A stretch of DNA of 62,994 nucleotides, counting the filler, from Dimargaris cristalligena (Eukaryota), in the NCBI GenBank assembly GCA_003614675.1. It is 24 parts of 24 records of this genome, joined end to end, with 100 filler letters (N's around TTAATTAATTAA, not from the genome) between each part and the next. Parts side by side here need not be neighbours in the genome. Positions count along the whole stretch, not along the records: positions 37,053 to 39,570 come from ML004187.1; positions 39,671 to 42,182 come from ML004188.1; 22 more parts are not named here. One strand, given 5' to 3'. Of this stretch, positions 1 to 55,707 are shown piece after piece; the stretch's first letter is position 1; every line of letters begins with the position of its first letter. Made by a program: the position numbers and the translations under genes. The notes beneath the pieces are model-generated. The model saw only the letters and a list, made by a program, of their open reading frames with translations. It did no database searches and was not told the DNA's origin.

Positions 1-888
1 GACAAGCACTATAGTAATTGGCTGACGATCTACAACGAGCTGACGCAGGTAGCGGAGAAGGAGGATGGATTCAACGTTCTAATTGGAAACACGGCGGCGC
101 TGATGACGCCGGCTGCGACGATTCCGGCTGCGGAGCTTTACGTGCCTCTGATTTTCTGGTTCAACAGGAACCCGGGTCTTGCGCTGCCGCTGATTGCGCT
201 CATGTATCACGACGTCAAGATCAACATTTCCTTCCGCCCGGCTGTGAAGTTTTACAAAACTTCCAATAATAATCCGCTTGCCACCATACCGGTGCTCCAG
301 AATGTTTCACTTTACATCGATTATATCTTTTTAGAAGCACCGGAAAGAAGAATGTTCTCACAAATGAACCATGAGAACCTTATTGAGCAACTCCAGTTTG
401 ATAGAGAGGAGTCTTACTCGAATGCGAGCATCATGCAAAAGCTCAACTTTTCACACCCGACAAAAGAACTTATCTGGGTTATTCAACCGGATGTGAACGT
501 TGTCAGTGGTGTCAACAGGTGGATGGACTTTACCGACAACGGTACCGGTCCGAACCCGTACGCTGGAAACGACCCTCTAGTGGACGCCAAGATTCAGCTC
601 AACACTCACGACCGTATCAGCACCCGTGCCGCTGCATACTTCAATTTGCTGCAAGCTTACTACCACCACAGCAGGTGCCCCTCCACTGGTATCTACCTCT
701 ACTCATTCACTCTGGAGCCCGAAAAGCACCAGCCTTCTGGGTCAATCAATATGTCCCGTATTGAAGGTGTGAACCTGAAAATGACCCTGTCAACGGGCAC
801 TTCTCCGGTTCGTGTTTACCCGTACGCGGTGAATTACAACGTTCTCAGAATCACTTCAGGGATGGGTGGGTTGGCATACACAAATTAA
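1..888 (+). CDS. MCP: Nucleocytoviricota (NCLDV) double-jelly-roll major capsid protein, 5'-truncated at the contig start
   Basis: Frame 1 is open from base 1 (DKHYSNWLTIYNELT...). It contains the hallmark MCP motifs LYVPLIFWFNRNPGLALPLIAL, LIEQLQF, LNFSHPTKELIWV, GIYLYSFTLEPEKHQPSGSINMSRI and the C-terminus YAVNYNVLRITSGMGGLAYTN*. No introns. Confidence 0.97.
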   Translation, partial: DKHYSNWLTIYNELTQVAEKEDGFNVLIGNTAALMTPAATIPAAELYVPLIFWFNRNPGLALPLIALMYHDVKINISFRPAVKFYKTSNNNPLATIPVLQNVSLYIDYIFLEAPERRMFSQMNHENLIEQLQFDREESYSNASIMQKLNFSHPTKELIWVIQPDVNVVSGVNRWMDFTDNGTGPNPYAGNDPLVDAKIQLNTHDRISTRAAAYFNLLQAYYHHSRCPSTGIYLYSFTLEPEKHQPSGSINMSRIEGVNLKMTLSTGTSPVRVYPYAVNYNVLRITSGMGGLAYTN

Positions 889-922: not shown

Positions 923-1132
923 GGATAATTTAGAAAAACAGAAAAAAAGGAATGCAAAACACAAACATCAAAATAATGCTTATGTTTTATACCTAAAGTT
1001 GCTTCCTATTCTATCGATAGAGGATTCAAAATTATGCAAATATTCAAAGGATGAGCAAGTTGAATAATTTTAAAAAAACACAACAAAAAGAGTGCAAAAC
1101 ACAAACATTCAAATATGATTATGCTTTATACT
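923..1132 (+). repeat. Imperfect ~70-bp direct repeat downstream of MCP (923-993 and 1062-1132)
   Basis: GATAATTTAGAAAAACA...TGCAAAACACAAACATCAAAATAATGCTTATGTTTTATAC versus GAATAATTTTAAAAAAACA...TGCAAAACACAAACATTCAAATATGATTATGCTTTATAC. Confidence 0.8.
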
Positions 1133-23918: not shown

Positions 23919-24614
23919 TGAGTGGTAGTATCAAGCTACTAAAATGAACAATAAAAATGTATCAAAAGGGCAGGGTGGCTTCTCCAGGTGAACTGGTTTG
24001 TCACTCAAATAAAAATTCAGTATAAAATACTTTTTAATAAAAAGACCAGTTTAAACTAAGTAATAATAATACCAGTTTGGAAGCTTAAAAGGACTATTTC
24101 CATGGCAACCACAAGTTTAAAAGGTATATAAATCTAAGTAATCTAGAGTAATAGTAAAAGTAGTTTTATTATAAAGAAAAAGATAGAAGAAAATTGATAC
24201 CCTAAAATTGACATACAGAAAAAAAGAGGAAAAAAAGTTTGCCTTATATATGAAAATGCACACTATTGTATGTACCAATTACTTGCATGAGTGTGCTAAT
24301 CAATTGTATGCATGGCCTGATCACCTGCATTGATAGTGCATATTATCCCCTAAAAATGTGAAGACTTTTAGTTTTATAATAAAAAAAATACTAAGCTATT
24401 ATCTGTATAAAACAGAGAATTATTAAAGCCAAATAGCCTGCAGTGAACCTGCATAACTAATTAAAAAGGGAAAGAGGATTTATAAAGTAGAACCAAAAAA
24501 GTAAAAGATAGGAATAAAACTAGTTATACCAGAAAAAAAGCCACTTCATACTCTACATAATAATAATAGTAATTTAATAAGTGTGGCTATAGGGGGTTAG
24601 TCTACCTTGCCACA
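23919..24614 (-). mobile_element. Family-B solo LTR (~700 bp)
   Basis: One end matches 5346-5433 and the other matches 21262-21558. Confidence 0.7.
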
Positions 24615-27511: not shown

Positions 27512-27528
27512 TCAACCAGGAGTCTGTA

Positions 27529-27945
27529 ATGAACGTTCTGTCCCAACTGCACCGCATCACCAACCTCGTCACGCAGGGCTATCTCACCACGCACTCGCGC
27601 CTTGCGGACACGAAGCAAGCGATTCACGCGCAGGTGGATCGTCACCGCAGCTTGATCCGCAGCGTGCTGTTGGCGCTCTGGATCGAAGCCATCCCCGGCC
27701 TCGCGCGTGCTGGCATCTGGAACGGGGGCCTGTGCAACATCTACCAGCAGGTGCTTGACAACGAACTGATCATGATCGTGTCCCTCGCTGCATTTGCCGG
27801 GGCGTTCATCTTGTGGCTGCTCGATGACGGCCACAGCAAGATCAAGCAGAACATCCTGCGCGGGTTCGTCGGCACCATGGCGCTGATCAACATGCCGGTG
27901 CTGTGGTCGCAGCTCTTTAACAAGGGCGTGGCCTGCACCGCCTGA
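27529..27945 (+). CDS. virB2: VirB2/TrbC-like pilin precursor
   Basis: AGGAG RBS upstream. Long leader ending ...LARA, then two hydrophobic helices. Lies between virB11 and virB3. Confidence 0.7.
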   Translation: MNVLSQLHRITNLVTQGYLTTHSRLADTKQAIHAQVDRHRSLIRSVLLALWIEAIPGLARAGIWNGGLCNIYQQVLDNELIMIVSLAAFAGAFILWLLDDGHSKIKQNILRGFVGTMALINMPVLWSQLFNKGVACTA

Positions 27946-27950
27946 CGATC

Positions 27951-28307
27951 ATGACTACCGCGATCGAAGCCGGCACGCCGGCGGCGGATACGCCCGCCGA
28001 CTCCCTGTCCGTGCCCATCCGCAAGACCATGCTCGAAAAGTTCCTGATGGGGGGCATTGACAGGAAGCTCTGCGCCGGCGAGCTCGCCATCCTCATATTC
28101 ACCGCCGTAGGCCTGCGCAATCCGTGGGTCCTGCTGGCGCTTCCGCCGACGCATCTGATCCTGTGGCTCGCGACGAAACGCGATCCTGACCAATTCAACT
28201 GCTATTTGCGCTACAGCAAACAGGGCGACTTCTACGAGCCGCGGCCGATGCTTCGCCAGACACGTAATGCTCGCCCCAAGGGCTTCGCGCGAGGTGAACT
28301 GTGCTGA
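27951..28307 (+). CDS. virB3: VirB3/TrbD T4SS membrane protein
   Basis: PIRKTM...LMGGIDR, hydrophobic core, KRDPDQF...YLRY. Overlaps the start of the next gene. Confidence 0.85.
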   Translation: MTTAIEAGTPAADTPADSLSVPIRKTMLEKFLMGGIDRKLCAGELAILIFTAVGLRNPWVLLALPPTHLILWLATKRDPDQFNCYLRYSKQGDFYEPRPMLRQTRNARPKGFARGELC

Positions 28308-29074
28308 ACAACCCTACGCTCTCGCCGTTCGACCGAGAATCGCTTACACAGATCGAGGAACGCCTAGCAGGCCGGAGGCGATCGACCGCTGAGCTCGTGC
28401 CGTGGCTATTCAAGTACAGCGATTTCATGATCGCCAACAAGGATTCAGCCTTGATGGTGTCCTTTGAATTCACGGCACCTGATTCCAACAGCATTTCCAT
28501 GACGGTGATGCGTGAACTTTACGAGCACGTCGCCGCCAGCCTGGGCAACCTGTCGCGCTATCCTATCTCGCTCTGGTGGACGGTCCATCGGCGCTTGGAT
28601 TCGCGCTATGTCACCCTGCCCATGCCGGACAAGGTTGCGCAGATGGTCGACGACGATCGGCACGCGAATTTCTTGGCCGAAGGCAACTACGTCAACCGGC
28701 ATTTCGTCACGTTCTCGCTTCTTCCCCAGGTCGGGCTCGACGCATTCGCCTCGCGCGTCATGCATGGCGTTACGCATGACGACCTGTCGATCCCGAGCGC
28801 GCTCTGGGAGGCCGTGCGTGCCACGTTTTCCGACCAGTACCAGTTCGCCTACACGCAGTCCGAACTGGAGGCTGCTGTTGAAACCTTTGAATCTATCCTG
28901 CACGGCTTCGCTGCAGACAACCCGCACATCAAAATGCGGCGTCTGGCCGGCAAGCGCCTCGGCGGATTTATGCACGCGGTCTGCTCCCCGCCAAGCGATC
29001 ACATCACTGAACTGGACATCCCGGAAACGCCGGCACTCGACCAGGCGATGTGCGACACGGAAATTACGCCCTTC
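28301..29074 (+). CDS. virB4: VirB4/TrbE ATPase N-terminal part, truncated by the contig end
   Basis: ELVPW...NKDSALM.SFEF.APD N-terminal pattern of TrbE/VirB4. Coupled to virB3. Confidence 0.85.
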
Positions 29075-31804: not shown

Positions 31805-33165
31805 GGGCTATCAATGATGTTCGGCCTGGTTAGGGCCGGGGGGTATACTATGGCGCTATACGGCCTGATATGACGGCAGTCATATCGGTTGGATTAGGAC
31901 GGATTAGGAGGGGCGACATCACCCTCTCCTACTGGAGCCTCGTCCTCGAGGCCTTCGACGAATGGAATGATCTGGTCGCCAGAGACGCGCTCCTGCGGGC
32001 GGCGCTTGTCGTGTATTGCGGGGGCGATGGTGTATGTATTACCACCATGGATGCCTTCGATGGTGGCGGGGCCTTTGAAGGGGGCTTGTAGTGACAGGGG
32101 CCCATGGGGAACTCGGATGAGAATGCGGTCGCCAACGCGGTACTGGGTCGGGTCGGTCGACTTAGGTCCTGTTTTATGCCGGACGTGTTGGTAGGCATCG
32201 TGGAGTCGGTTACGCAGTTCGTCTACATAGGTGGACCCGGTGGAGGCCCGTAGAGCATCTGGTTCGGGGTTCAGGGCGACGTCAACTGGCATGCGTGGGT
32301 CGCGTCCGTACATCAGGTAGAAAGGTTTATTCGCGATGACCCGGACGTGTGCGGTTCGGTAGGCAAACAGATGTAACATAAGGTGTTCGTCCCATTGAGG
32401 GTCATCACCAGAGGAGTGTTTTGCAATCATGTGCTTCAAGGTCCCGTTCAGGCGTTCGATGGCTCCGTTGCTTTGCGGGTGGTAGGGCACGGCTAGGCAG
32501 TGGTCTACTCCGAGGAGTCGCAGCGTCTGCCATAGGATACTGGCGGTGAACTGTTTCCCGCGATCGGAGACCAGAATGCGGGGGCAGCCATGAGCGCTGA
32601 TGATATCCTCGATCAGGAATTGAATGACGGCCTGTGCCGTTATGGTGGGAACCGCTCGTGCAAAAGGCCATCGGGTAAAGTAATCGACCGCGATAATGAT
32701 AAACTTGTTGCTGTTTCGAGTGGTCGAGAAGGGGCCGATGATGTCGATTCCCAAACGGTCGAGCGGTCCAGTGAGGGGGGTGACCAGTTGCGCCGGCAGC
32801 GGGGGGTTTTGTTGGTGACGTTGGCACACCTCGTATCCCCGGATGTGCTCCTGTATGTCGTTGTTCATTGACGGCCAATAGACCGTCTGGCGGAGGTGAT
32901 GGAGCACTGTTTCTACTCCTAGGTGCCCTGCACCAGGCCCTTCGTGGGCGGCCTCTATTGCAGCGGCCCGGTGAGTTTTCGGCAGCACCAAGTGGTTCTG
33001 TCCACCGGGGCCTTGCTGATACAGCAGTTGATCGTGGATCACAAAGGTTTGATTCTTGCCGCGAAATCGTCGGAATGCGCGGTCTCCCATTCGGTCCCGG
33101 AGTAGGGTCACTTCGGGGTCTGAGAGTTGGTCCCTGAGCATCTGGGCCGGTGGTATGGTCACGGC
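31805..33165 (-). mobile_element. Ty3/Gypsy integrase with PPT and start of the 3' LTR (young, CpG-rich)
   Basis: ORF 31894-33162 with H...GHLG zinc motif, GIDIIGP, SDRGKQF, HPQSNGAIERLN and KGPA. Polypurine tract AGGAGAGGGTGA directly before TGTCGCCCC at 31918. Confidence 0.92.
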
Positions 33166-35744
33166 GAGGACTCTCGGTGGGGCATTGGAATTGGAATTGC
33201 CATGTGGATTTACGAAAAAGACAATCCAATGGGCAAGGTGAAAGAATCATTCCAGAGACCCGGCTTTATATATGCAGCCATGATGTCTTTATCGCCACTA
33301 TTGATAATTAGAGTACAGATTGGATTGGTAGTAGTTTCTAATGTTGTATTGTCTTAAATTTACGGCCAGTTACCCTGTCTCATCCATATAGTCATTTCAT
33401 AAACCACCCCATATATATATATAGGCCAACTGCCGCTAGTTTATATCAACATACAAATTTATAGATATTTTAAAAATATATGGCAAATATGGAATGACAC
33501 TGACAACCACCACCCAAGAATTGTCTATTGGGTGGTGGAGACCGTTGTTTGGCCTCGGTCTGCCTCTGTTAGTTTAGCAGAGGGGTCGTGTGACAAAATC
33601 CCTCCCTAATATATGGGAAGGACTATTGTTCAAGCCTATCCCCGAGACTCTCAACAGACTAAGAGTGGTTAATTCGGGTGACATAACTGGATAACCATTT
33701 GGGAAATTTGGATTTTATTACATTATAAGTGTTGAAATTATCTGTCTAACATTAATAAGTAGTGGGTGTAATACTAACTGGTGCAGAGGGCCCCTACAAG
33801 CAAAAGGGGCTGTTGAAAATAGTATAGGCAATGTAGTGGGGAGGTATGGGAGAAAAAAGTAGGAATGTGTAGGTTGTGCTGCCGTGGGCAGCCGGCCAGA
33901 GGCCGTGTAAGCTCCAGCACATATTGCTAATCCAAAAAGTAGTCATACTTTGGATAAATTCAAGGCCACCAGACAATTGACGAGTTATTTCCATGGGAAC
34001 GGTCCGGGGTCATTAATATTATTTTATTTCTTTATGCTAGCTGATTCTCTTTTCCTTCAGCTTTCCAAATTATACTTCCATTTACTTTTCCATCTATTAT
34101 TGATGAAGTTATAGGTCGTCAAAGTCAATGATGATTTTAAAGCCATGACAATTGACCACCTCATATTACCACTTTTATGCTATGACAATCCTTTATGAGT
34201 AGGGCTTGGGAATAACCAGTCTCCGGTGGAATCCTTCTTGGAGTCACACCATACAATTGCTTAAACATGAATTCCTTTTTTATCAATATCCGACATGAAG
34301 AAGGACTGGGAAGACTGTGTCTTCCAACCTTANNNNNNNNNNNNNNNNNNNNNNNNNNNNNNNNNNNNNNNNNNNNTTAATTAATTAANNNNNNNNNNNN
34401 NNNNNNNNNNNNNNNNNNNNNNNNNNNNNNNNAAGTCGAGGTTGCGGTTCGGCATACGGCTGGTCGGAATACCGATAGCACCGCACCCCTCGGCGTCTCC
34501 CCCGGCCCCAGAACCAAGCCGGTCCTAAGGACAACTGCACCACTAAAGGGCCCCCCCGGCCTACCCAAGCCACCCGCCGCCCGCATTTTCGAGGTGGTCG
34601 AAAGCCCCGAAGTTGCTATATAATCTCAGCACCTCGTAGTTTAAGGTGGATAATACACTTATAGAGAAACCAATCTATGGGAACTCCACCTAATACCACT
34701 TACAACGGATAAGTAAACCAGAATTATCCACTTCTGTTAAATCCCCCTCCCCCTCCCGACCACACTCGCTTCATTCATTGACACTATTTTAGCGAGTGGT
34801 TGTTCTTTGACTAGGACACCGCAGCTAACCAATGGCGAGTCCATTGACATTGAAATATATTTATAAAGTATGCATTACTTATTAGTTAGATAGCACTATC
34901 ATCATTATCAATAAATTTACATGCAATTATTACGCGCAAGGCGGATTCGGCCTTCACTTTCACTTATATTAAAGATATACTCGATTTTCAGGAAATTGTA
35001 GTGGGAACATTTCGGAGTAACCCGACTTTTAGATTGAGGAAGGGGGTCCACGGTACTCGAATTTCTCCGATACAAATAATTTCGCAGGAAAATAAAAGTA
35101 GGACAGTGTAATTATTCGCCTGGCAAACTAGTTTCAAAGAATTTTCCTAATAAGAAACTGCCATTTATAAGTAATATTAAAAGATACTCGGCTTCAACTT
35201 GGTGTGCGCATTGCTACTCTTCAACCGCCCTAAACTGGTTTAAAATGACACCAGCCCGAAGATTCGAACGAATTATTAAATAAGCAGATATGTATGACCG
35301 CGCGGCAAGAAATGCCCAGCATCTTATTACTAATAAAATAATTAGCGCCACATGGCTATAATATATAAAATGGAGTTTATTGGGATATTATCGTACTATA
35401 ACGGATTGGATAGAATAGCTACCCAACCATTTGATATAATGTGAGGAAGGTCACATTTAGGACAGGAGGAGGAGGCTGACACGGCGGTCTGAGATTATTT
35501 AGCGGGTGGTGTTATAGAGAGTGTGAGGGGTGCGGGCAGGAGATGCTGGCGGGATGGGTAGGGTCGGGTGGGGTGGGCTCCATCTAGAGGATTTGGAGGA
35601 ATCCTTAAGATAATAATAATCGAGTGCGCTAAGCGGGGTCAAGGAAGAACCGAGCAACGATATAGCTTACACCAAGGGTCACTGTCGAATCCTTCTTTGG
35701 TGGGCTAACAATCAAGCGCGATCCGAGATTTGGGATGTGGAAAA

Positions 35745-36108: not shown

Positions 36109-37170
36109 CTCCCGGAATTTAGTGTCCGGGCTACTTAACAGGATCCGCTCAGCCTGAGTTGGTTGCCGCCATTGACCAAGACCCGAGAGTATCGAATATT
36201 TCGACCGTCTCATTTTTAGAGCTACGGCCCAATGATTATGGTGTAGCCGTGTTTTCTTTGAGATGTACAACTCCCTCCTCCTTCCTCTACCCCTTCAAAC
36301 ACCCACAGATATGCAATGCGCTTAGTCAACTCTATTGCCTTTGCACACTAACAATACACCTTCCCTAGGATCCGACCTGATAGTACCTGGCTGCATGGTT
36401 GAAATGGCCTAAAGTCCAGGAGACTAAGTGCATTTCCTAATTGAGCCCCAAGGAACAACAGGTACGTCCATGACCACCACGTCCCTCCTGGTTCACCCCG
36501 CCTCCTCCCTACCCTTATCCCCAGGTGATCATTTATGCATTCAAATTTGCCATGACCTTATTCAGGCCAATCTAATAAAAACGGTCGGATGGCGGTCATA
36601 TCCGAGAATGCCCCTAAGGAGAGAATGAAATAAAATGGGTTCCTAACCTCCTGAGCCTCCAGGCCCATGTCTTTAATATAATGCTATTAATATCGGGTGG
36701 TTAGAAGTGCATCGCATTCCCCTATCTATTATCTACCCTTATACCCTCAGCTAACGTGCAGGAAATGTCACATATGTTCCGGAGTTTCTCCCGACCAGAT
36801 GTAACGGGTCCCAAGCTACTATACCCAGAGACCAACTAGGTACCCAACCGCCAACCGCCACCCGGTCTATTTTCAGTTTTCCTAAACGTACGCACATCCA
36901 ACCAACTTAAATGGTTGGCAAAAAGGTGCATGGATTCATTATAATAAATGTGNNNNNNNNNNNNNNNNNNNNNNNNNNNNNNNNNNNNNNNNNNNNTTAA
37001 TTAATTAANNNNNNNNNNNNNNNNNNNNNNNNNNNNNNNNNNNNNNNNNNNNAATACTCCCCCTTGCTGCCACCTCTTGGAACAGCAAGTCTATCATCAC
37101 CCTTCCCTTTTTATCACCTATCTTTTCAAATAAAGTTCAGTTTTCAAGGATTTGAGTTCAGTTCTTTACA

Positions 37171-39162
37171 GTATTCATGCTCATTATTAACCTCAATTGG
37201 GGGTGGAGGATCTTGAGTGTGACCAGTAATAGTATTTTCAGTAAGGGGTTCAAGGAGGGAGACATAAAATACATGGTGTATACTCATTGATAGTAGTAGG
37301 TCTAGGTGATAAGCCCATTGGCCAACTTTGGCAATGATAGTAAAAGGGCCTAGGCAGTTGTAGTTAAGCTTTGAGTTAAGTCAGGTGGTCTTGATGTGTT
37401 TTCAAAGGAGCCAGACTTTAGAGCCAATAGACAGGTTAGGCTCAGGCAGTTGTTTATGCTTGTAAAAGGCAGCATACTGGTGGTTTGTAGATTCAATATT
37501 CTTAACTAAAGAATTGTGAACCTCAATTAGTTCTGAAGATAGGTCAGTTACTGCAGGTGTATTACATTTTGTAACTGCAGCAGACATTGGTAATGTAATT
37601 AGGTGATGGGTAGTATTGGCAAAGAATGGGCTAGTTTTGGTAGTTGAGTGTTTTGAGTTATTGTAAGAAAATTCAGCAAGGGGAAGGAGGTCAACCCAAT
37701 TATCCTGGAGGTGGTCACAATAGAAGCAAAGGTATTATTCTAGGACCTAGTTTACCCACTCTGTTTGGCCATCTGATTGGGGGTGGAAGGCAGTTGATAT
37801 GTTTTACTTGATATGGAGGAGTTCCATCAGGGCAGACCAGAAATGAGAGGTAAAGGTTGAGCCTCAATCTGAAACAATATTAATAGGGAGGCCATGGTGT
37901 TTATAGATATGGGTTAGGAATAATTGGGCTGTAGTATGGGCATTAACATTGTCAGTAGTTGAAATAAAGTGTGCCATTTTAGTAAAGTGGTCAACAACTA
38001 CTAGTAGTGCAGTAGAGCCACTGGAGGCTGGGAGGCCAACAATATAATCCATAGAGATTGATTTCCAAGGGCCTTCAGGGATTGGAAGGGACTGGAGTAG
38101 TCAATAAGGTTTGTGACAAACTAGTTTACAGTGATTACATTAGTCACAAGAGGATACATATTCTTCCACAAATTGGTGCATCTTGGGCCAGTAGTAATTC
38201 TGGGATAGTAGTTCAAGGGTTTTAGCTTGGCCAAAATGGCCAGCAGTTGGGGAATCATGGTGATCTTGGAGTAAGCGTAATTTGATACTGGTAGTGTTAG
38301 GGATATAGATAAGTCCATCATAAAGAATAATATCATCAACCAGGGAGAAAGGTGGTAGGTTATTGGTATTTTCGGTTGGGGAATTGGGTAATGGGTTATA
38401 TAAAGAAGCTAGCACTTTAGCCAGGGCAGGATCAGATGTATAACTAGTACATATATCATCAATAAGAAAGGAAGGGGAAGTTAAGGTATTGAGGGTACAA
38501 ATAATAAATTAGTCAGACTTTAGTAGTGCTTGTGAACTATTACACAAGGTGTTACTCCCCTCCTTAGGGACAAAGTCAGGGTGGTGAGATAGGGCATCAG
38601 CCTTGCCATTCTTATGGCCAGGGATATACTTAATAACAAAGTCACAGTTAGCCAAAAGTTGGGCCCAGTGGACTTAGTAGTGATTTAGGGATTCTGTAGT
38701 GGTAAAATACTCTAGGTTCTTATGGTCAGTGAGTATTGTGATTTGGAAATGAGCACCCTCAAGGTAGGCACACCATACCTTGAAAGACTCCACTATTGCT
38801 AACATTTCCTTATTATAAATTTCATAGTTCAGTTCAGTAGGAGTGAATTTACGAGAATGGAAGGTAATAGGGTGGAGAAGACCATCATCATCTAGTTGAG
38901 AGAGGACTCCACCAATGGCAAAGTCAGAGTCATCAGTTTCAATAGTTATAGGCTTAGATAGATCAAAGTATTGAAGGACCAGGGCTGATGTAAATGCAGA
39001 TTTAAGGGCATCAAAGGTAGCTTGGGCTTCAGGTGACCAATCCCATGGAGTATCCTTATAAAGGAGGCAAGTGAGTGGTACTATAATTAATAAGAAATTT
39101 CGAACAAATTGGTGGTAGAAGTTGGTAAGACCTAGGAAGGACTGGATATGGGAGAAGTTCAA
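37171..39162 (-). mobile_element. Chromovirus-type Ty3/Gypsy pol pseudogene (RT end, RNase H, integrase, chromodomain start)
   Basis: [75 protein letters not shown]...PPPPIEV. Many stops and frameshifts; nearly CpG-free. Confidence 0.92.
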
Positions 39163-39699
39163 TCAAGCTATATAATGATTTGAATGAAAGTTCCAATTGA
39201 TGCAGCGGGACTATTTTTTTATCGAAACGGGAAATAGGCACATCAATGGGACTTTTTTTAAAAATGAGGGAAAAATGATCCCTGACCCTGTGATCAATCA
39301 TAAGACCTATAATAAATCTATGAATAATGACTCAGGAAAGCCAAAAAAAAAAGTGTACTATGTAAATTGATGTCTAGCAACTGGATTAGTGAAAAATTAG
39401 CTTTCTTTAACTACTTTTTACTATTTTTCAATACTTTAGAGCTACTTTCCACTACTTATTAAAGGACTATTCCTATACTGAATTAATTTACAATAAACTT
39501 AAACTTTCTTTTATATATAATCTTGCAGCTAGTGTATAGAAACTGTGTTTTTTTAATCAAACTACCCTTCNNNNNNNNNNNNNNNNNNNNNNNNNNNNNN
39601 NNNNNNNNNNNNNNTTAATTAATTAANNNNNNNNNNNNNNNNNNNNNNNNNNNNNNNNNNNNNNNNNNNNCCTATCGATAAAGCATTTACTTATTTTGA

Positions 39700-40071
39700 T
39701 CATTTCGATTCCTGAAAAAAAGGATTGTTCCTTGAAATTTTGTTATTATTTTTTACCAAAGAGAAATTCAACTTGCAAGGCACCGTTGTAAAATCTTCGT
39801 GAATATTTGACAAACCGTAAAACTCAAGAGGGTCATTCAAGTGGCAATCGTTAAAATGCCTCCGAGGATATTGCAAAATCATACCAATGTTTTCCAATTC
39901 TTGACGTGTTTTCCGCGTTGTCTTGAGAAGATGGACGATCTCTTTATGACAATTTTCAATATATGACTTATTTGCTATACTTGCGTCGTATACATTTTCA
40001 TACATTTCAGAAATCTCAGCGGCTGACAATAACGCAATGTTTTTGTCTTTCAAGATACTCAAAATCATCAT
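39700..40071 (-). CDS. Hypothetical protein on a putative viral contig
   Basis: 123-aa intronless ORF in a gene-dense AT-rich contig. Confidence 0.55.
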   Translation of the reverse strand: MMILSILKDKNIALLSAAEISEMYENVYDASIANKSYIENCHKEIVHLLKTTRKTRQELENIGMILQYPRRHFNDCHLNDPLEFYGLSNIHEDFTTVPCKLNFSLVKNNNKISRNNPFFQESK

Positions 40072-40224
40072 TTACAGATATCAATATATGACGATTTTTA
40101 TTATTTAGCTCGTTTTTCATTATCGTACATCTTTTGCAAATTTTATGACATTGGAATCAACTATGAAAAATATCTATCGATAAATAAAATAATCAGATGC
40201 GGTGATTAGGAATTTGAAAAGTGT

Positions 40225-40938
40225 TCAATTTCGAAAACAATTTTTTTTCAAGCACGCTTGGAAAGAATGTTTTGTTATATCTGAATTTCCATAATAGTGC
40301 AAATTTAAAAGTATGTTTTGATATGCATTTTGATGAGTTTTGTCCAACTCGATAGCTTTCAAATATAATTCTACAGCTGAAGAAAAATCACCAAGAACTC
40401 CACGTAAATGTCCAATGTTTACATATATCTTCGCCAACATAGCTTGTGAAGGTTGCAGTTCGATTGCGCGATTAAAACAATCAAATATTTTTGACATGTC
40501 CTTGAACTCTTGACTATGCAACAAAGCTAACCCCAATGCGTTTAAAAGATCAGCAGATTGAGGACATTTTTCCACCGCAATTCTACAATATTGCAACTCT
40601 AAACTGTGCAAGCGCAACGTTCTGTAAACATCTATCAACCCTATGTATCCCATCTCAAAACATGGATCTGCCATTAAACACTTTTGATAATAAGAAATTG
40701 ATTTGTCGTAATCTCCATACTTCGTGTGATATATGAATCCATAGTTGTTTAAGACGTCTGGACTTTCCGAATCATATTTCATAGCTTCGTCAAGATAACT
40801 GACAGAATTATCAGGGTCAAATATACAAAGACATGTGCATGCCCTGACCATCTGTTCTTTGATTTTTTTATATTCTGCTCCTTCATGACATACCATTTTA
40901 CTCGTGTTCGATAAAATGCTTTTTGCTTTTTGAATCAT
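40225..40938 (-). CDS. TPR-repeat protein resembling the N-terminal half of SPINDLY/GT41-type glycosyltransferases; possibly frameshifted or truncated
   Basis: TPR signatures DVLNNYG, DLLNALG, IYVNIG...AVELYLKAIELD, then AYQNILLNLHY. An upstream ATG at 41017 would join the frame if the A7 run were A6. Confidence 0.8.
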   Translation of the reverse strand: MIQKAKSILSNTSKMVCHEGAEYKKIKEQMVRACTCLCIFDPDNSVSYLDEAMKYDSESPDVLNNYGFIYHTKYGDYDKSISYYQKCLMADPCFEMGYIGLIDVYRTLRLHSLELQYCRIAVEKCPQSADLLNALGLALLHSQEFKDMSKIFDCFNRAIELQPSQAMLAKIYVNIGHLRGVLGDFSSAVELYLKAIELDKTHQNAYQNILLNLHYYGNSDITKHSFQACLKKNCFRN

Positions 40939-41241
40939 TTCTGCGCGAGAAAACTGTATGCCACTTTCGAAAAGTTCGTTCGCATGTTCTATGTGTTTTT
41001 TTAATGTACAATTCCATTCTTGACTGTCTTCTTATTTAAGTTGAGAACATTAATGTTTCTTTTTTTTTCACCACGTTTTGCTTATATTTTTACTTTCCAT
41101 TGTGTTTGTACTTTTCTTTTATCGATGATACAATCCGAAATTTGAATGTTGGCCGAAAACATGATGCATCATATCAAGTACCAATGTCCGCAACTCACGC
41201 GTTTTTTTTATTATTTGGTATAATTAAACCACAAGACAAAA

Positions 41242-41559
41242 ATGGATTACCTCAACTCTTATAATCAAAGCATTAATAACTTTATGAGTCCGTTGGACAA
41301 TCCTCCGGTCATGGCATTCCTAAAACTTTTTTTGATTGTTTACGGTTCAATGATTGCACCTCATCTTCCTGATTACATTTTGAAATGGTTCAACTTTGTA
41401 CCCTTCAAAATATTTGTCCTCTTCCTCATTGTTTGGACTTCCAATCACGACCCCACTGTGGCACTTCTTATCGCGGTTGGCTTTACTGTGTCCATAAATG
41501 TTCTGTCTGGCAAAAAGGCATTCGAGGCTTTCCGAGGGGTCAACACATTGGGAGTGTAA
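41242..41559 (+). CDS. Small multi-pass membrane protein resembling a conserved NCLDV hypothetical family
   Basis: LDNP...LFLIVYG..IAPHLP...F...FKIFVLFLI...DPTVALLIAV pattern, which I recall from giant-virus proteins (not searched). AAAAATG start context. Confidence 0.65.
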   Translation: MDYLNSYNQSINNFMSPLDNPPVMAFLKLFLIVYGSMIAPHLPDYILKWFNFVPFKIFVLFLIVWTSNHDPTVALLIAVGFTVSINVLSGKKAFEAFRGVNTLGV

Positions 41560-41592
41560 ACGAATTTTATATTTATCTTTAGACACTAAAAA

Positions 41593-42182
41593 TCAAACTA
41601 TGGCACAATCCAAATGTTTGACAGCACTTGTTCTTGATATTTTGCTTTCCCCATTACAGTCCTTTTGACGTTTCTGTTGATCTGAAAATGATCCTTGTTG
41701 ATCTAAAAATGAACTTTCTGTCGGCAACACTCTGTCCTTGTTGATAACTGGTGCAGAAATTTGAAACATATCCATCAATCCAGTAACACCTGATGAATTT
41801 GGTTCTGATTTCGAACTCGAACTCGACGACGTTTTCCAAATATTGATATTTGGTTTTAAGCCCTGAAGAGCGATCGCATTGGATACTGCCAGATTTTCGT
41901 GAACTTTTTCATCCAACATTTTCCATTTTAGATAATCATCTACGTTCCCGTCAAAAGTGGTTGAAAAGTTTTTGATTGATAAAGCCTGTGAATCTGCTGC
42001 TATTCGACTAACTTCTGCCGCCTTTTGAACTTTGTAAAGTTCAGCGTCTACCTCTTTGGTATTTTTGTAAAAATCAGCATCCACCATTGTCAACTTCATT
42101 TCATTTTCACTTTTCGCAATATTGACTTTGGACTCGTTCTCCAATCTATTCTTTGCAATCTCTGTGTTCAATTCAAGCTGGG
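41593..42182 (-). CDS. Flotillin-like (SPFH family) protein, C-terminal part, 5'-truncated
   Basis: Ala/Glu coiled region, then YLKWKML...LAVSNAIALQGLKPNINIWKT, matching the plant/fungal flotillin tail (LAxxNAxAxxGLxPKIxxWxT). Confidence 0.75.
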
Positions 42183-42387
42183 NNNNNNNNNNNNNNNNNN
42201 NNNNNNNNNNNNNNNNNNNNNNNNNNTTAATTAATTAANNNNNNNNNNNNNNNNNNNNNNNNNNNNNNNNNNNNNNNNNNNNCAGGGGCAGGGGCTCATT
42301 CACTCGTCAGGGGCGTACTTCCGATAAGTGCGAAAAATAGATAAAAATAAAAGTAGGTAAAAAATGTGGTAAGTTCACCACAGCCAG

Positions 42388-42972
42388 TATTGCCCAGGTT
42401 AACTACTCTTAGTCCATCAAGAGTCCTAAGGATAGGCTTCTAATGGTAGATGGGGTGTAGGCTTGGCCAAGCAGGTTCTAGCATTAGGTAGGGGTACAGT
42501 ACTAACTAATAAAGGCTACAAATACAGGTACAGGCAAAGGATATGCAGTGAGCACACTTACTAGTCAATACAAGGGTGGTGGGTACTTATGGAGTTTATT
42601 AAGGTAAACTAGGGGGGTAAGAATAAGCTGACTCATCTAACCAGTCCCAATGGGGCCCAGTTATATATATGTGGGGGCCACTCCAGAGGGAGGCCCCAGG
42701 GGAAGGATACTACTAAGACTAAGATATGGTAAAATAGGCCAATTAGATAGCTGTTAGGGTCTAGAAGACTCTGATGGTAACCAAAAGAGTTATTGAATTG
42801 GCCCTCAAGTAATTAGTATGAAGCAGTGGAGTCTGGAAGGGGAATGGTTATATGTTATAGGGGTGATCCCATAGTACCAGGTGTGGTCATGGGAGGGTTA
42901 ATATGGTTCTATAAGGCCTAATAAGGATAGACACTAACATATTGGGATTAAGGTAGATTAGATGGACCAATA
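42388..42972 (-). mobile_element. Family-A solo LTR
   Basis: Colinear with 19659-20240. Termini mutated to TATT...AATA. Confidence 0.85.
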
Positions 42973-44119
42973 CTGGCATCTAAATTTACTAAACAGCTTA
43001 TATGTCTTTCCCCATATATCTCTATTTTATTTTATGCCCTTATTTGACTAGTTAACCAAATAACTGATTGGCAGCAAAGTTAATTCCTGTGATATTCAAA
43101 ATCTTTTACCCATTCAGTTGGTAAGCTCCACATTAGTAGATAGCTGACTTCACTTGCAAAAAGAAGTTCCTGAGTATATAAGTAAAATCCAATAGGACTA
43201 TTAATACTATGTTGCAAGAGGTAAAGTCTACAGTACAGAGAAATAGTGCAATAATTAGAGCTATATGATTACCTCCCTGGAACCCTACCACACTAGTGTC
43301 AAAGCTATTGAGGCAGAATGGGGGTATATCTAACTTAACCAGGACCTGGGTGAAAAAGAGCAGATGGACCTCTTCCTACTAGCCCAGATGTTAGCCATTC
43401 AACCTGCTGATGCTATTTACCAAGTCATGGAAAATCTAGCCCAGAGTACCATGGAACTACAACCCATTTATACTGCACTAGGCTTGTACATATATGATCC
43501 CATCTGTATACTGGCCAGTGAACTGATATCCCTGAATGGGTTGGATTTGCCCAAAGTCTTTCATAATGTTGTTGTGCAGGAATCCTTGTGGGGGATCATT
43601 GTGATTCTGACCTTCAAGGGGAACTTCCTCAAACTGAAGGATCTGGCTAGAAAAATCCATAGTGGTGCACTGCCCTTTCTCTATGAGGTAGTGACATTGA
43701 TTGCCTATCTGATGCTAGAGTATGGACTAACTCAATATCATGACTGGGCTCTCAAAAACATACTCTATCCTATCAATGATCAGACAATGGCCTTTTATTC
43801 AGTTTTGAGAAAGTAAGTAACTTACTTAATATGGCAGAAGTTTATCCAGTCTGTATAACAAGAAATCCATTTGATGAGGCAAATATTACTGGTTAAAAGT
43901 TATTCTCCCATATATTACCCCATATACATATTGTGTAAAATATTATACAGTTGGGTTAAAGTTCACCCATATCCTAATTAGAGGCTACTTAAATAATCCC
44001 CAAAATGCAGACGACCCATTCCATCTCAATAGTGAAGCCTGTTGCCCCTGTCAGGATAGTCCCATACCTTGGGTTATCCAAAACATAGACATATATAATG
44101 AATAAAACATATTTGGGTA

Positions 44120-44679
44120 CTATCAGCCCTCCTAATCCAACTTGATCCAGACCTAACAATCACCCATCCTATTCTCACCTTATAGCACCATATTGACCCT
44201 CCCATAGTTACCTCTGGTACTATGGGGTCATCCTTTATTATGTAACCCCACTCATTCAACCCCAATGCTTTGCACTCCAAACACTCAGCTTGCTGATCCA
44301 AGACTCTTCCAATTCCCATGAGAGTCTTCCTAATGTGAAGCCATCTGGTTGGATTCTCTACTTATCTACACCTTAGTCATAGTAGTATTTCCCTTGGGAC
44401 CTCCCTCTAGAGCTATCCCTGCATATATATAACCAGGCCCCACTGGGACTAGTTCAATTCTTTAGCTTATTCATATCCCCCAGTTTACCTCAATAAACTC
44501 TATACACTCATTTCCCCTTATGCTAACTAGTAAGTGTGCCTTCTGCATGTCCCTGACATTTACCTGTATTTGTAGCCTTTATTGGTTAGTACTATGCCCC
44601 CATCCTAATGCTAGTAGCCTGCTTAGCTAAGCCTAAGCCCCACCTACTGTTAGAAGCCTATCCTTAGGACTCTTGACAG
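44120..44679 (+). mobile_element. Family-A LTR, near complete
   Basis: Reverse complement of 45960-46519. Confidence 0.8.
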
Positions 44680-45937
44680 TGTTGTGGTCACAATTAATAC
44701 CACAGGGTAATATAGCCTGATAACCTTATCAGGGCCAACTGGAGCAGCCTCAGTCTAGTGGGAAAAACTAACTGGCTAAGGGAAACACGCACTTNNNNNN
44801 NNNNNNNNNNNNNNNNNNNNNNNNNNNNNNNNNNNNNNTTAATTAATTAANNNNNNNNNNNNNNNNNNNNNNNNNNNNNNNNNNNNNNNNNNNNCTCTTT
44901 CAAGTGTAAATACTCCCCCTTGCTGCCACCTCTTGGAACAGCAAGTCTATTATCACCTTTCCCTTCTTATTATCTATTTTTTCAATTAAAGTTCAGTTTT
45001 TAAGGATTTGAGTTCAGTTCTTTACAGATAGGTAATACTTGGGTAACCAATAAATTCAATAAAAAATAATGGAAGGCAAAAAAGGAAAGGGAGAAAGCTA
45101 TTTTTAGCTGCATTTTGAATAGAGGTACAGTCTGATCAGGGGCAGGGGTGCATTATAGTTAAGGGTATATAATATACTAATAGAAAAAGTACTATACTAA
45201 TGGAAATAGAGGAAAAATGACTATATTTGTCAGGGGCAGAGGCTCATTCACTCATCAGGGGTGTACTTCCATTAAGTATAATAAATAGATTAAAAAAAAG
45301 TAGGTAAAAATGTGGTAAGTCCACTATAAGGGTACTAAAAGGTGCCACCAAATAGTAAAAAAGGGAATGCCAATTGGTAAATGGGAGTAGCCAACTGGAA
45401 AATGGGAGATAGAGATTCCCTTTTTTGCATGGTGAATGTAGTAAAAGGGAATGGGGCCCTAAGGCCCTGAAATTCAAATGGGGAATTGACATTGGCCAAT
45501 GTGGGCCAATGGGAATCCAAATTCAATTGGGATTTTAAATTAGGAAATGGGAGATGAAGATCCCCAAATTCAAATGGGAATGTCCAATGGGCAAGTGGAA
45601 ACCATGCTTACCCAAATTTGAATGGGCCTGTGCATTCCCTCCAAGTGGGCCAATGCTCACCCAAATTTGAATAGGCATGTACATTCCTTTAAAATAAGTT
45701 ATTAATAAATTAAGTTAAAATAGACTATAGGTTCCTAAAGGGAGTTTAATTACCCCTAAAGTCAAAATTTAATAGGTAAAAGGATGGATAGATAGTATAA
45801 AGGAATACTACCTATCCCAATAAACTGGTTGGACTGGCCTAAAGTACTGCATAAAATTACTTGAATATTACTACCTATGGGTAAAATTTGTCACTCACTA
45901 GGCTGGCAAGGAGCTAGTGAATAAATAAACAGGGTAG

Positions 45938-46519
45938 TATCACCTGGGTTAACCACTCTTAGTCCATTAAGAGTCCTAAGGATAGGCTTCTAATGGTAAG
46001 TGGGGCTTAGACTCAGCCAAGTGGGCTATTAGCATTAGGATGGGGGCATAATACTAACCAATAAAGGATAAGTGCAGGTAAATGCAAGGGATATGCAGCA
46101 GATACACATACTAGTCAATATGAGGGAGTGAGGGTATATAGCTTATTGAGGTAAACTGGGGGATATAAAGTAGACTAACTCATTAAATTGGTCCCAGTGG
46201 GGCCCAGTTATATATACATGGGGAGAGCTCCAGAGGGAGGTCCTAAGGGAAATGCTACTAAGTCTAAGGTATAGGTAGATAAAGGATCTGACCAGATGGC
46301 TTTGTATCTGGAAGACTCTCATGGGAACTGGAAGAGTCTTGGATTAACAGGTTAAGTATTTTGTGCAAAGCATTGGGGCCAGAAGGAGAAGGGTTATATA
46401 ATGAATGATGATCCCACAGTACCAGGGGTGACTATGGGAGGGTTACTATGGTGCTATAAGGCCTAATAAGGGTGGATGATTGTTAAGTCCAGATTTAGGT
46501 CGGACTAGGAGGGCTGACA
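45938..46519 (-). mobile_element. Family-A solo LTR
   Basis: TATCACC...GCTGACA; colinear with the other copies. Confidence 0.85.
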
Positions 46520-46525
46520 GATATA

Positions 46526-47358
46526 CAGTGGCTCCAATAAATGTATTAATGTTTTACAATTTTGAATTTAAAAAACCAATTACTCAGCACCTAGGAAAGC
46601 TATTAATAAATAAATACCACCATAAGAAAGCCCTGTGTCTCTAGTATACCTGTGTAAAGCCATTTTTTTTACTGCTATTTTAAACAGCAAGAAACAGGAA
46701 TTTAAAAAATATTGGTGCATTAATATACTTATCACAGTTATTGTAAAAAAAAATATAGATTTTCCTCTCTGGCCATAATTATTAATATAGTGGTATTTGT
46801 TTTTGATGTACAGTATTCCTATGCATTTTACACCTTCTTCTCATTATTTTTATATATTTTTTACACATTATCTTCATAAATCCCATCCCTAAGGCCACTG
46901 AAAACAACATCCTCCAGTACCTCAATAATGGTGAAAGCAACTGGAAAATCACCCAGATGCTTGGTGTAAGCCTTACCCCAGCCCAGTGTATTACCAATAG
47001 GGTGTGTTCAGGTTGTATTATTACAAAATTAGGCCATCCTCCTAAGTGAACTGAGCAGTTTAGGTAGTAGTATGTAAGTCAAATCACAATTAGGGGGAAG
47101 GAAACTGCTGTAGAGATTACCAAATCTCTTGAAAAGGAGCTTGGGGTATCTGTGCATCCTAATATAATATGGAATGTACTCTGTACAAAGGGATTGGGTG
47201 CTATAGTTAAGCCTAAAAAAACCTTTTTATCAGCAAGAAATGTACAGGTGTGTCTTGCCTGGGCAATTGCCCACAAGGATTATACTTTAAGTGACTGGGA
47301 GTGTGTTATATGGTCATACAAGACAAAGATCAATCAATTTAGGTCAGATAGGTACTGA
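46526..47358 (+). mobile_element. Tc1/mariner DNA transposon, left end and transposase pseudogene
   Basis: TA|CAGTGG terminus at 46524-46531. HTH relic (ENNILQYL...ITQMLGVS) and KPKKTFLS...LAWAIAHKDYTLSDWECVIWSYKTKINQF (from WxxVIWSDETKIN). Confidence 0.85.
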
Positions 47359-47504
47359 TACATATGGGAGAGGTTCAACTAAGCTGTATAATGAAAAATC
47401 TGTTNNNNNNNNNNNNNNNNNNNNNNNNNNNNNNNNNNNNNNNNNNNNTTAATTAATTAANNNNNNNNNNNNNNNNNNNNNNNNNNNNNNNNNNNNNNNN
47501 NNNN

Positions 47505-48959
47505 TGGTACTTCTGATTCTCGCAATTCCGATTTACTGTTTACATTATTCCCTAATGCCGACCAATTGCACCAAGTGGCTCGCCAGGCGGGCGTTACGCC
47601 GTACACTCTCATCAGGGCTGCCTGGTCCCTCCTACTAAGCCGATACACCGACCAGACCGACGTGGTGTTCGGTAACACCGTTTCTGGGCGGGCCCTGCCT
47701 CTCCCTGGTATCGATTCTCTTCTGGGCTGTTTCATCAACACCGTGCCTTTCCGAGTCTCTTTGAAACCTGGAATGTCGGTAATTGAACTTGTCACGGTGA
47801 TACACCAAAGCGCCCAGATGATGGTCCCCTTCGAACACCTGCATCTAGCCAATGTCAATGAGTGGGTTGATGGTGAGGTTCGCCCAAGTGATATGTTCAA
47901 CACATTGTTGGTGTACGAAAACTACCCTGACACCGGCTTGGAGAGTCTAGAACATCCGGTTACGTTCACGGACAGAACCTTTTTGGAATCGACCGACTAC
48001 CCCTTGGCCGTCATTGCCCAAGTTGAAAATGCCCAACTAACGGTGAATTTGAACTGGAGTACGCCCGCATTTGACCGGTGCTATATGGTGACTCTTTCGC
48101 ACCACCTAACCACCCTCTTTTCTGACATGGTCTCCGCCTTGGCTAATTCAAATGGGTATATATCTATCAAAGACCTCTCGTTACTCTCCACGAGTGAAAC
48201 GACCCTGGTCACTGAGCAGCTTGCCCGCCCCCATTTAGCCATTGATTTTGAGATATGTGTTCCAGACCTATTCACCCGAACGGCCCATTCAATCCCTGAC
48301 ACAATTGCGGTCGAGTTTAACGACTTACAGTGGACTTATAGAGACTTGCACATCCGGTCCGTAAACTTGGCCCACCATTTACTGCTATATGGGATCAGGT
48401 GGGAAACACCCATTGGCCTAATTATTGACCGGGTTCCCAGCACCATTGCCGCCTATATGGGGGTTGGTTTGGCCGGCGCTTCTATTGTACCGATTGACCC
48501 CGCTTTCCCCTGTGACCGCATCCACTATATGGTGGAAGACTGTGGTATTCGGCTAATTTTAACCAATACAGCTGACCAGGCCCAATTGGACACCATTCAA
48601 CAAGCCCTCCCTGACGTCGAATTCCAGACCATTGACTCCTGGCTCTCACTCCCTGATGTTCCTTGTAACAGGTTGCCCGCTCTTCCTAATGTTCGCACCA
48701 CCGACCTGTCACATATCCTTTACACGTCAGGCACCACTGGTCGGCCCAAGGGTGTTCAGTTGGAGCACCGGGTCATGGCCAATTTTGTCCAACAAGTAGA
48801 ATCAACGATTGGCATTACCTCTGGGCTGCGCCTGATGCAAAATATGGCCCTGACGTTTGACTGCGCACTTTTGGAGATCTTCATCGGTTTATGCAAAGGG
48901 GCTACGCTAGTTTTGCGTACCGACCTCCTGGATACCCTGCCCCGGGTGGATGCCTTGGT
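47505..48959 (+). CDS. NRPS fragment: second half of a condensation domain and first half of an adenylation domain
   Basis: DVVFGNTVSGR, GCFINTVPFR, FNTLLVYENYP, A1 WTYRDL, A2 GASIVPIDP, A3 YTSGTTGRPKG, A4 FD. Intronless. Confidence 0.93.
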
Positions 48960-50012
48960 GGCATTAGGGAATAATGTAAACAGTAAATCGGAATTGCGAG
49001 AATCAGAAGTACCAGAAGGTTTCGGTAAGCATAGCTCGGTGGGCTGTTCCACATCCCGCAGGAAGTCCTTCCAGAAAGCTTCGGCTCCTTTTTTGTCTGA
49101 ATTTTGAAGATAGGATACATACTCATGGAACGAAGTAGCCGAACTAGAGGTCAGTTCGACATCTCCTTGAAGATGCGATCGGAGCTGGTTTAACATAATA
49201 CCGATAGACCACCCGTCTATGAGCGAATGGTGGATAGTTAGTAGATAGCGGAACAAGTCGGGGGCCATCTGCTTAACGAATATGCGTAGGAGTGGCTCAT
49301 TCAGCTTAAACCCTTGCGCAAGGTTAACCTTTAGGAAGTTCTCCTCGCTGGAAGCCCCAAAATCAGACCAATCGTTAACTACATGCCAGCCAAACCGGGG
49401 TTTTCGAGCTACCACTTGCACACCCTGGCAGTTGGTATTACTCCAAGAAGTGACAAATACGGTGCGCAGTATGGCATGATGGCTGACGACAGCCCTGGTG
49501 GCAGTCTGTAGCTCATCGGAGTTCGATACACCAGCTACCGTGAAAGCCATTTGGACGAGATATTCAGTGGGTTCCTTGGCCGTGGCCGTCCACATGCCCT
49601 GCTGCATGGGCAACATGGGGTAGAGATCCTCGATATCGTGTGGGAAAAGACCAACAGTGGCAAGTTCGGCCTCGAGTTTAGCCAATTCGGGGAGGGAGGT
49701 GTTCAGACTGGGGAAATCTGACGGGGTCCAGAGAGATTTTGGATGCGACTGATCGAGATAATGTACGATATCTACCAGAGACTGTCGAACATGGTCCAGG
49801 AGAGACGCAATAACATTTGTTGGGATGACCTCGGGGCAGTAATAAATCATGAACGTTAATCCATCAGGGGTTGGTAATCCAACCACCTCCAGTACCTGTG
49901 GACGAAGTTCAGACATGTCACATATGGCCAGGTTGGTCGTTAATTCTGGACGGAGGATCCAGGGGGCTCGGCCGTGCATGGACAGGGTCCCGCTACTTGT
50001 TGTGTGACCCAG
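48960..50012 (-). CDS. NRPS fragment: tail of the preceding (epimerisation-like) domain and first half of the same condensation domain
   Basis: WTPSDFP linker, IEDLYPMLPMQQGM, HAILRTVF, HHSLIDGWS. Ends in GTSDSRNSDLLFTLFPNA, which is also how the + strand fragment begins. Confidence 0.9.
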
Positions 50013-55600: not shown

Positions 55601-55707
55601 ATTATGGGCAGGGGCAGGGGCACATTCACGTGTCAGGGGCATACTTCTAATAAGTGCAAAAAATAGATAAAAATAAAAGTAGGTGAAAATGTAGTAAGTT
55701 CACCACA

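Follow-up and report, generated by a model that had tools for sequence, protein, structure and literature searches.

Our analysis concerns contig 16 (ML004188.1), one of the contigs in a 62,994-nucleotide (nt) window of DNA from the assembly filed under Dimargaris cristalligena (GCA_003614675.1). The window is made up of 24 separate contigs, each of about 2.5 kb and ordered by length, with spacers of N and TTAATTAATTAA between them; contig 16 occupies exactly 39671-42182. We consider it likely that contig 16 is a fragment of a Nucleocytoviricota genome, that its lineage is that of the major capsid protein (MCP) gene on contig 1 (1-2573), and that this virus is carried in or with the cells behind the assembly, which protein identity assigns to the chytrid Blyttiomyces helicus. 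The assignment to giant-virus-type DNA of the contig 1 lineage is made because of four lines of evidence: a membrane-protein family, the name of an environmental genome bin, the co-occurrence of the two contigs in sequencing runs, and a short palindrome. The giant-virus reading as such is supported mainly by one gene, which encodes a membrane protein of 105 amino acids (aa). The contig as a whole and this gene are as follows.

39671..42182, no strand: whole of contig 16; AT-rich, CpG-retaining, TpA-depleted, densely coded, giant-virus-like fragment
41242..41559, plus strand: small membrane protein P0003, 105 aa, with three long hydrophobic helices (HMMER, IMG/VR, BFVD)

A giant-virus-associated membrane-protein family

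The family to which the membrane protein belongs has no Pfam model. An exhaustive HMMER search placed its relatives in 1358 representative clusters at E<=1e-3 and in 155 at E<=1e-10, the nearest relative being 76% identical, and the cluster names were uninformative for 20 members of the family. The 105-aa protein itself is already present in the public protein collection, on a single contig of 2512 bp, and is annotated there as fungal. The genomic settings of the family point to giant viruses. In IMG/VR it is encoded at 25 loci, 17 of which are named GVMAG, and several of the others lie on contigs of 50-357 kb; a metagenome scan returned a further list of 172 matches to the protein. The best IMG/VR locus (L001), with 54% identity, also encodes the large subunit of ribonucleotide reductase (RNR) and a YqaJ-like open reading frame (ORF). 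The RNR large subunit at this locus (L001:561-4004) is 1147 aa long and contains an insert that, by eye, may be an intein.

Neighbouring genes at other loci are of the same character. Three paralogues of the membrane protein fall within 8 kb of locus L032 (1608-1949, 8672-9199 and 9201-9623), adjoining a triphosphatase-guanylyltransferase-methyltransferase capping enzyme, the RNR small subunit, a thioredoxin and a kinase. Single genomes thus hold expansions of the family. From loci L028-L059 we took the neighbouring ORFs of at least 250 aa, 107 in all, and the commonest domains in them were those of superfamily II (SFII) helicases, replication factor C (RFC), topoisomerase II (Topo II), XRN exonuclease, UCH and protein kinase. 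These families are usual in Imitervirales-type genomes, and none of them is restricted to viruses. An MCP gene was found within 10 kb of the membrane-protein gene at two loci.

Structure comparison leads to named giant viruses. An AlphaFold2 model of the membrane protein, built from 32 relatives, is all-helical with six helices and has a predicted local distance difference test score (pLDDT) of 80. Its eight best matches in BFVD come from Edafosvirus, Yasminevirus, Faunusvirus (two matches), Catovirus, Terrestrivirus, Hokovirus and Fadolivirus, each with a probability of 1.00 and with E<=1e-3 in one case only. The Foldseek alignments show these viral membrane proteins to have the same helical fold at 17-36% identity; they differ from the contig 16 protein in that they are mostly longer (177-462 aa), with extra C-terminal parts, and they are uncharacterised. 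Given the GVMAG loci, the giant-virus neighbourhoods and the BFVD matches, we conclude that the membrane-protein gene marks giant-virus DNA. It is the one ORF of the four on contig 16 for which relatives in giant-virus genomes were found. The initial annotation had put contig 16 forward as a second giant-virus contig, and the presence of this family both in giant-virus bins and in named giant viruses upholds that proposal. An unnamed family of more than 1300 representative clusters that marks giant-virus DNA in metagenomes may also be useful beyond this assembly.

A shared palindrome and the tie to the capsid contig

The second line of evidence is the palindrome TATCGATA, which occurs six times in the window against 0.94 copies expected, a count reached in 0 of 100 shuffles. 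Contigs 1 and 16 hold two copies each, for which a first-order Markov model predicts 0.033 and 0.037, and all four of these copies are intergenic, so that the earlier claim of a motif common to the two contigs proved correct. The copies, together with two of the ORFs of contig 1, are these.

1..888, plus strand: C-terminus of a nucleocytoplasmic large DNA virus (NCLDV) MCP, 295 residues, contig 1 (Capsid_NCLDV 1.9e-47, Capsid_N 2.5e-23)
1012..1019, no strand: TATCGATA in the 12-nt perfect palindrome TCTATCGATAGA, intergenic on contig 1, 145 nt upstream of the ATG at 1165
1165-1344: ORF of 59 aa, contig 1
1420..1427, no strand: TATCGATA within TTTATCGATAAA, intergenic on contig 1, 118 nt upstream of the ATG at 1546
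39673..39680, no strand: TATCGATA at the left end of contig 16, 19 nt past the stop of ORF1
40175..40182, no strand: TATCGATA, in the extended form TATCGATAAATA common to contig 1 at 1420; 103 nt upstream of the ORF1 ATG and 42 nt downstream of the stop of the tetratricopeptide repeat (TPR) gene
41120..41127, no strand: one-mismatch variant TATCGATG in the divergent region between the TPR and membrane-protein genes, 114 nt upstream of the membrane-protein ATG

The variant TATCGATG has an ATCGAT core at 41121 and is an inverted match to the copy at 40176. The 800-nt intergenic stretch that follows the MCP gene on contig 1 carries two sets of direct repeats (929-975/1069-1115, 47 nt, 85%; 1046-1081/1336-1371, 36 nt, 72%), between which lie small ORFs of 48-76 aa.

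Across giant-virus loci the palindrome is rare: there are 42 copies in 937,553 nt (0.045 per kb, 107 loci), and only 3 of 329 chunks of 2.5 kb hold two or more. It is enriched in the loci of the nearest relatives of the membrane protein, with six copies in L028, three in L070, two in L030 and one in L029. All 12 of these copies are intergenic, with the consensus cTATCGATAg, and they mostly lie between divergent ORFs or 66-113 nt upstream of an ATG. The four loci also resemble our contigs in GC (0.38-0.41) and in their depletion of TpA, and their consensus is the form seen at 1012. The membrane proteins of L028-L030 are 58-62% identical to that of contig 16, whereas the copy at L070 is only 38% identical. 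Unlike contig 16, none of the four encodes a homologue of ORF1, the TPR protein or the flotillin-like protein; their neighbouring genes are for patatin, phosphatidylserine decarboxylase, hydrolases and an AAA ATPase.

These positions suggest that TATCGATA is a clade-specific promoter element, placed about 65-120 nt upstream of start codons. A role as a terminator or 3'-end signal was also considered, given that stop codons precede the copies in contigs 1 and 16 by 19-124 nt. We rank it below the promoter reading because most copies in the relatives lie between divergent genes, with no stop nearby. Among the papers listed by our literature searches, none reports TATCGATA as a giant-virus motif, and the other matches to it seem to be primers or cloning sites. 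The same palindromic 8-mer is the Drosophila DNA replication-related element (DRE), which is bound by DREF in promoter regions; this is a resemblance only. A palindrome restricted to one clade is a possible marker for binning as well as a promoter candidate.

The third line of evidence is the name of a bin. In IMG/VR the contig 1 MCP has a single relative, at locus L107 (72% over 294 residues), on a contig named GVMAG-M-3300015360-128. The same name is carried by L001, the best IMG/VR relative of the contig 16 membrane protein. Both loci are AT-rich (GC 0.32-0.33), and they encode a capping enzyme, RNR and the YqaJ-like ORF. They differ from contigs 1 and 16 in having no synteny with them beyond the MCP and the membrane protein, in a CpG observed/expected ratio of 0.6, and in showing no enrichment of TATCGATA: L107 lacks it, and the one copy seen is within an ORF.

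The two contigs are also found together in sequencing runs. Words of contig 16 were present at 0.95-0.98 in X1-X4, four samples of the coded organism A (98% in X1), at 0.85 in X5 (organism B) and at 0.55 in X6 (organism C), and these runs come from three studies overall. The fragment recurs in several libraries that are independent of one another, and no RNA run was listed with its words. Contig 1 was covered in 26 of 30 bins on X5, by 10 pieces that are each at least 99% alike, and in 17 of 30 bins on X6. Contigs 1 and 16 thus travel together in X5 and X6. Run X9 gave no contig 16 words and no contig 1 cover, blanks that are not proof of absence. At 993, X1 and X6 both show a loose end, the point at which a variant locus parts from contig 1.

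Composition is in keeping with this picture. Tetranucleotide frequencies of contig 16 correlate with those of contig 1 at r = 0.90 (0.92 when the MCP gene is left out), compared with 0.87 between the two halves of contig 16 and at most 0.71 between contig 16 and the other 22 contigs. The dinucleotide distance from contig 16 to contig 1 is 47, and to all others it is at least 124.

Several results count against the assignment to a giant virus or to the virus of contig 1, and they have to be set beside this evidence. When 35 unrelated AT-rich giant-virus chunks were compared with contig 16, their median r was 0.81, with six at 0.85 or above and one at 0.91. Because such control chunks correlate too, composition says that contig 16 is AT-rich giant-virus DNA unlike the rest of the window, and not that it comes from the same genome as contig 1. 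The composition shared with contig 1, which the initial annotation had stressed, is therefore real in its values and at the same time common to unrelated AT-rich giant viruses. Words of 11-12 nt common to contigs 1 and 16 are barely above background. L001 and L107 differ in length and share a record name alone, by which one genome is not established. In X1, contig 1 is represented only by at least three MCP variants, 90-99% alike, over positions 1-993 at depth 22-145; no cover was found beyond 1032, and uncovered parts, here as in X5 and X6, are not proof of absence. The identical sequence occurs at depth 2-4 under two other organism labels, where library carry-over is possible. The four ORFs include no NCLDV hallmark (MCP, PolB, A32, VLTF3, D5 and so on) by Pfam. 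For ORF1, the TPR protein and the flotillin-like fragment, no relative was found in IMG/VR scans, which reach close relatives only, and tblastn against 106 loci gave no match to these three proteins or to the 284-aa ORF of contig 1.

The MCP variants in X1 mean that several related viruses or copies exist and that contigs 1 and 16 need not be one genome. The MCP versions in X1 are matched by two flotillin paralogues at 82%. Taking both sides together, a common viral lineage for contigs 1 and 16 is well supported; to the same molecule they are linked only indirectly, by the bin name, the co-occurrence in runs and the motif. The proposal that both come from the same virus accordingly stands for the lineage, on the strength of the bin name, X5 and X6, and the motif, and is qualified by X1, which holds contig 16 but only MCP variants that are 90-99% alike.

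Layout and companion genes of contig 16

Contig 16 had been described as AT-rich and CpG-retaining, as densely coded by four intronless ORFs with a narrow gap between a convergent pair, and as unlike gene-poor contigs taken for the host's. All of this was borne out. The GC fraction is 0.347 and the CpG observed/expected ratio is 1.03; the four intronless ORFs take up 1994 of 2512 nt (79%); and a stop-free frame of at least 200 aa is present in only 8 of the 24 window contigs. For the pair contig 16 and contig 1, the TpA observed/expected ratios are 0.58 and 0.62, and both have kept their CpG. In its dense intronless genes, its short spacers and a composition apart from that of the other 22 window contigs, contig 16 has traits expected of a Nucleocytoviricota genome fragment. 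No match to a tRNA or an Rfam family was found within it. Its remaining features are the following.

39700..40071, minus strand: ORF1, 123 aa, an ORFan (ORF listing)
40225..40938, minus strand: TPR-repeat protein, 237 aa from the first ATG (Pfam TPR)
41560..41592, no strand: 33-nt spacer between the convergent membrane-protein and flotillin-like genes
41593..42182, minus strand: C-terminus of a flotillin-like SPFH/Band 7 protein, 195 residues (about 227-421); the gene continues past the contig end

ORF1 has no Pfam family at E<=1. Its best Atlas score, 0.86, is a lead only, and its single-sequence AlphaFold2 model has a pLDDT of 48 and is unusable. The TPR protein consists of tandem 34-residue motifs and matches TPR_8 (6.5e-15) and TPR_1 (1e-13) in Pfam, as well as TPR_2 and TPR_17 (1e-12 to 1e-15). 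Its matches in the PDB are consensus TPR proteins (up to 2.5e-50) and the TPR region of OGT/SPINDLY. The frame stays open upstream to 41031, a further 31 codons, without a start codon. The translations of ORF1 and the TPR gene, as delimited here, are not in the public protein collection. The sole further Pfam signal in the four ORFs is a sub-threshold match to PBDC1.

The flotillin-like fragment agrees at every residue (100%) with the C-terminus of RKO94274.1, a B. helicus entry of 421 aa named 'Band 7 domain-containing protein' and encoded on a 21,955-bp contig, and is 82% identical to RKO94436.1, of the same species, encoded on a 25,239-bp contig. The 195 residues have no Band_7 match of their own in Pfam, and the SPFH domain falls outside contig 16. 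Membership of the SPFH group is given by the full-length identical protein, which matches PF01145 (Band_7) at E 1.9e-10 over residues 11-157. The label 'flotillin' in the initial annotation can thus be kept by way of the full-length protein, with the reservation that the contig holds only the C-terminal part. Flotillin-2 is the only PDB relative of the full-length protein (E 1.1e-3, 41.5 bits), and PF15975 (Flot) is unmatched in it at E<=0.1. Its neighbours in the Atlas are mixed SPFH clusters, largely bacterial. Word-based searches of 5.8 billion clusters, using either the fragment or the whole protein, limited its relatives to the two B. helicus proteins, and the two paralogues had no match in metagenome scans of the same reach as those of IMG/VR. 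Like flotillin-2 and other SPFH scaffolds, the full-length protein carries a Band_7 domain on its N-terminal side, with a long stretch of charged, helical sequence behind it; unlike them, it is very divergent, does not match the Flot domain and has relatives only in the B. helicus pair. Judged by its sequence, the flotillin-like protein is a very divergent, lineage-restricted member of the SPFH group.

SPFH genes do occur in giant viruses. We looked for Band_7 in two large viral records, one of which, the 683-kb giant-virus bin G002 (L026, G002:C8:26143-26706), encodes a Band_7 protein (52.5 bits) and also carries the membrane-protein family. By tblastn at E<=1e-3, the flotillin-like proteins of B. 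helicus did not match the Band_7 gene of G002. The initial annotation had read the TPR, membrane-protein and flotillin content of contig 16 as fitting an NCLDV. The membrane protein does fit; TPR repeats are not diagnostic, and for the flotillin-like protein no viral relative was found.

From these parts one can sketch how the fragment might work. A palindrome of their own, lying upstream, would drive the genes of contig 16. The three-helix membrane protein, a putatively conserved product of Imitervirales-type viruses, could join the virus's SPFH scaffold in building or remodelling viral membranes, either the internal membrane or those of the factory, and the TPR protein could provide protein-protein contacts. 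A broader version of this model, which we offer tentatively and would not rate as probable, is that an undescribed giant-virus clade persists as several diverged copies in or with B. helicus and has relatives in the environment. Such a clade would use its own DRE-like TATCGATA promoter, and its own flotillin-like scaffold, encoded beside the pan-giant-virus three-helix protein, would form with it a membrane-organising pair.

Other contigs of the window are heterogeneous. Six are nearly devoid of CpG, with observed/expected ratios of 0.01-0.09 (for example, 1 CpG per 2539 nt): 2674-5245, 23904-26442, 37053-39570, 42283-44794, 44895-47404 and 55323-57820. They have no matching excess of TpG/CpA (0.95-1.16), and they may come from another organism, from a methylated compartment or from the host genome itself. 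Contigs 3 and 13 (5346-7914 and 31805-34332) are long terminal repeat (LTR) retrotransposon pol fragments by Pfam, with CpG observed/expected ratios of 0.87-0.92, and in one of them a dUTPase domain sits between the RNase H and integrase domains. Contig 11 (26543-29074), with GC 0.61, a CpG observed/expected ratio of 1.25 and a T2SSE type II/IV secretion ATPase (1.3e-37), looks like a bacterial contaminant. Contig 19 (47505-50012) is a non-ribosomal peptide synthetase (NRPS) fragment with condensation and AMP-binding domains. Its condensation-domain ORFs overlap on opposite strands, at 47506-49104 (plus) and 48759-50012 (minus), and the overlap may be an inverted chimera, as from amplification, or a genuine inverted duplication.

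Alternative origins and comparison with known fungal giant viruses

Contig 16 could be giant-virus DNA with no link to the chytrid, whether from a free environmental virus, from a virus of some other microbe or from library carry-over, that got into the single-cell-type libraries and has come to be assembled and annotated as fungal. The near-identical sequence at depth 2-4 in runs of two other organisms, from two other studies, is what such an origin would produce. The window does hold clear non-fungal DNA, in the GC 0.61 contig with the T2SSE ATPase, and we saw no host-virus junction. Against this stand the recovery of nearly all contig 16 words from each of the four organism A samples and the depth of the MCP variants in X1. 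In addition, the diverged copies (flotillin 82%, MCP 90-99%) are a better fit to a resident or persistent family of viruses than to a stray particle. We regard an unlinked virus as unlikely.

We think it very unlikely that the contig now evolves as fungal nuclear DNA, be it an endogenous viral element of some age or an island of host genes with viral ancestry, along the lines of the transferred genes that the initial annotation suggested. Insertions ranging from single MCP genes to contigs of nearly 350 kb are described in assemblies of zoosporic fungi in the main text of PMC12247965, and the filing of ORFs as fungal proteins and the multiple diverged copies would suit an element of this kind. 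Its four ORFs are intact, however, and the intergenic motif has been kept and is common to free environmental relatives. The composition is that of an AT-rich giant virus unlike the other 22 contigs, of which not all need be host, with CpG at 1.03 of expectation set against six contigs that are nearly CpG-free. Intact ORFs, motif and composition thus argue for recent entry or for no integration at all. For the same reasons, namely intact ORFs, retained CpG and a conserved motif, the DNA probably belongs to a virus that is active or of recent date, not to an ancient remnant.

Contamination by a bacterium or another cellular organism with compact genes, for which one could cite that TPR and SPFH proteins are common in bacteria and that the Atlas clusters of the flotillin-like protein are largely bacterial, is scarcely credible given a membrane-protein family known from giant-virus bins and from named giant viruses, a composition twin (contig 1) that carries an NCLDV MCP, and a flotillin-like protein whose close relatives, in a search of 5.8 billion clusters, all lie in B. 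helicus. Our preferred reading remains a giant virus of the contig 1 lineage in or with the chytrid.

This reading has consequences for public records. The 'fungal' Band 7 pair of B. helicus and the 105-aa protein are probably viral, and they are unsuitable as fungal characters or as evidence on fungal gene families. Our literature searches found nothing that joins 'Blyttiomyces helicus' with 'giant virus' or 'Blyttiomyces' with 'capsid', and the genus is not mentioned in PMC7017919. According to a 2026 preprint, Blyttiomyces proteins resemble those of fungus-infecting giant viruses.

The closest known system is that of the giant viruses of zoosporic fungi. According to the main text of Myers et al. 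(PMC12247965), MCPs are present in 17 fungi out of 141, and 12 of these belong to the Chytridiomycota. Viral contigs there reach nearly 350 kb, and GVOG7 marker trees define a clade, Mycodnaviridae (IM_02); the window holds only a partial MCP as a marker. That main text does not name B. helicus, and its abstract and sections 4 and 5 make no mention of TATCGATA or the flotillin-like gene. The likeness lies in the architecture: the MCP contigs described there are denser in genes than those of the host and are mosaics of viral, cellular-like and ORFan genes. Contig 16 is most likely a further case of the known link between giant viruses and zoosporic fungi, to which it makes modest additions: an unnamed membrane-protein family, a viral flotillin-like gene and a promoter-like palindrome, the functions of which are predicted. 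Fungal giant viruses have been documented only recently, so that each host lineage with intact viral DNA widens the picture and is a possible virus-host system.

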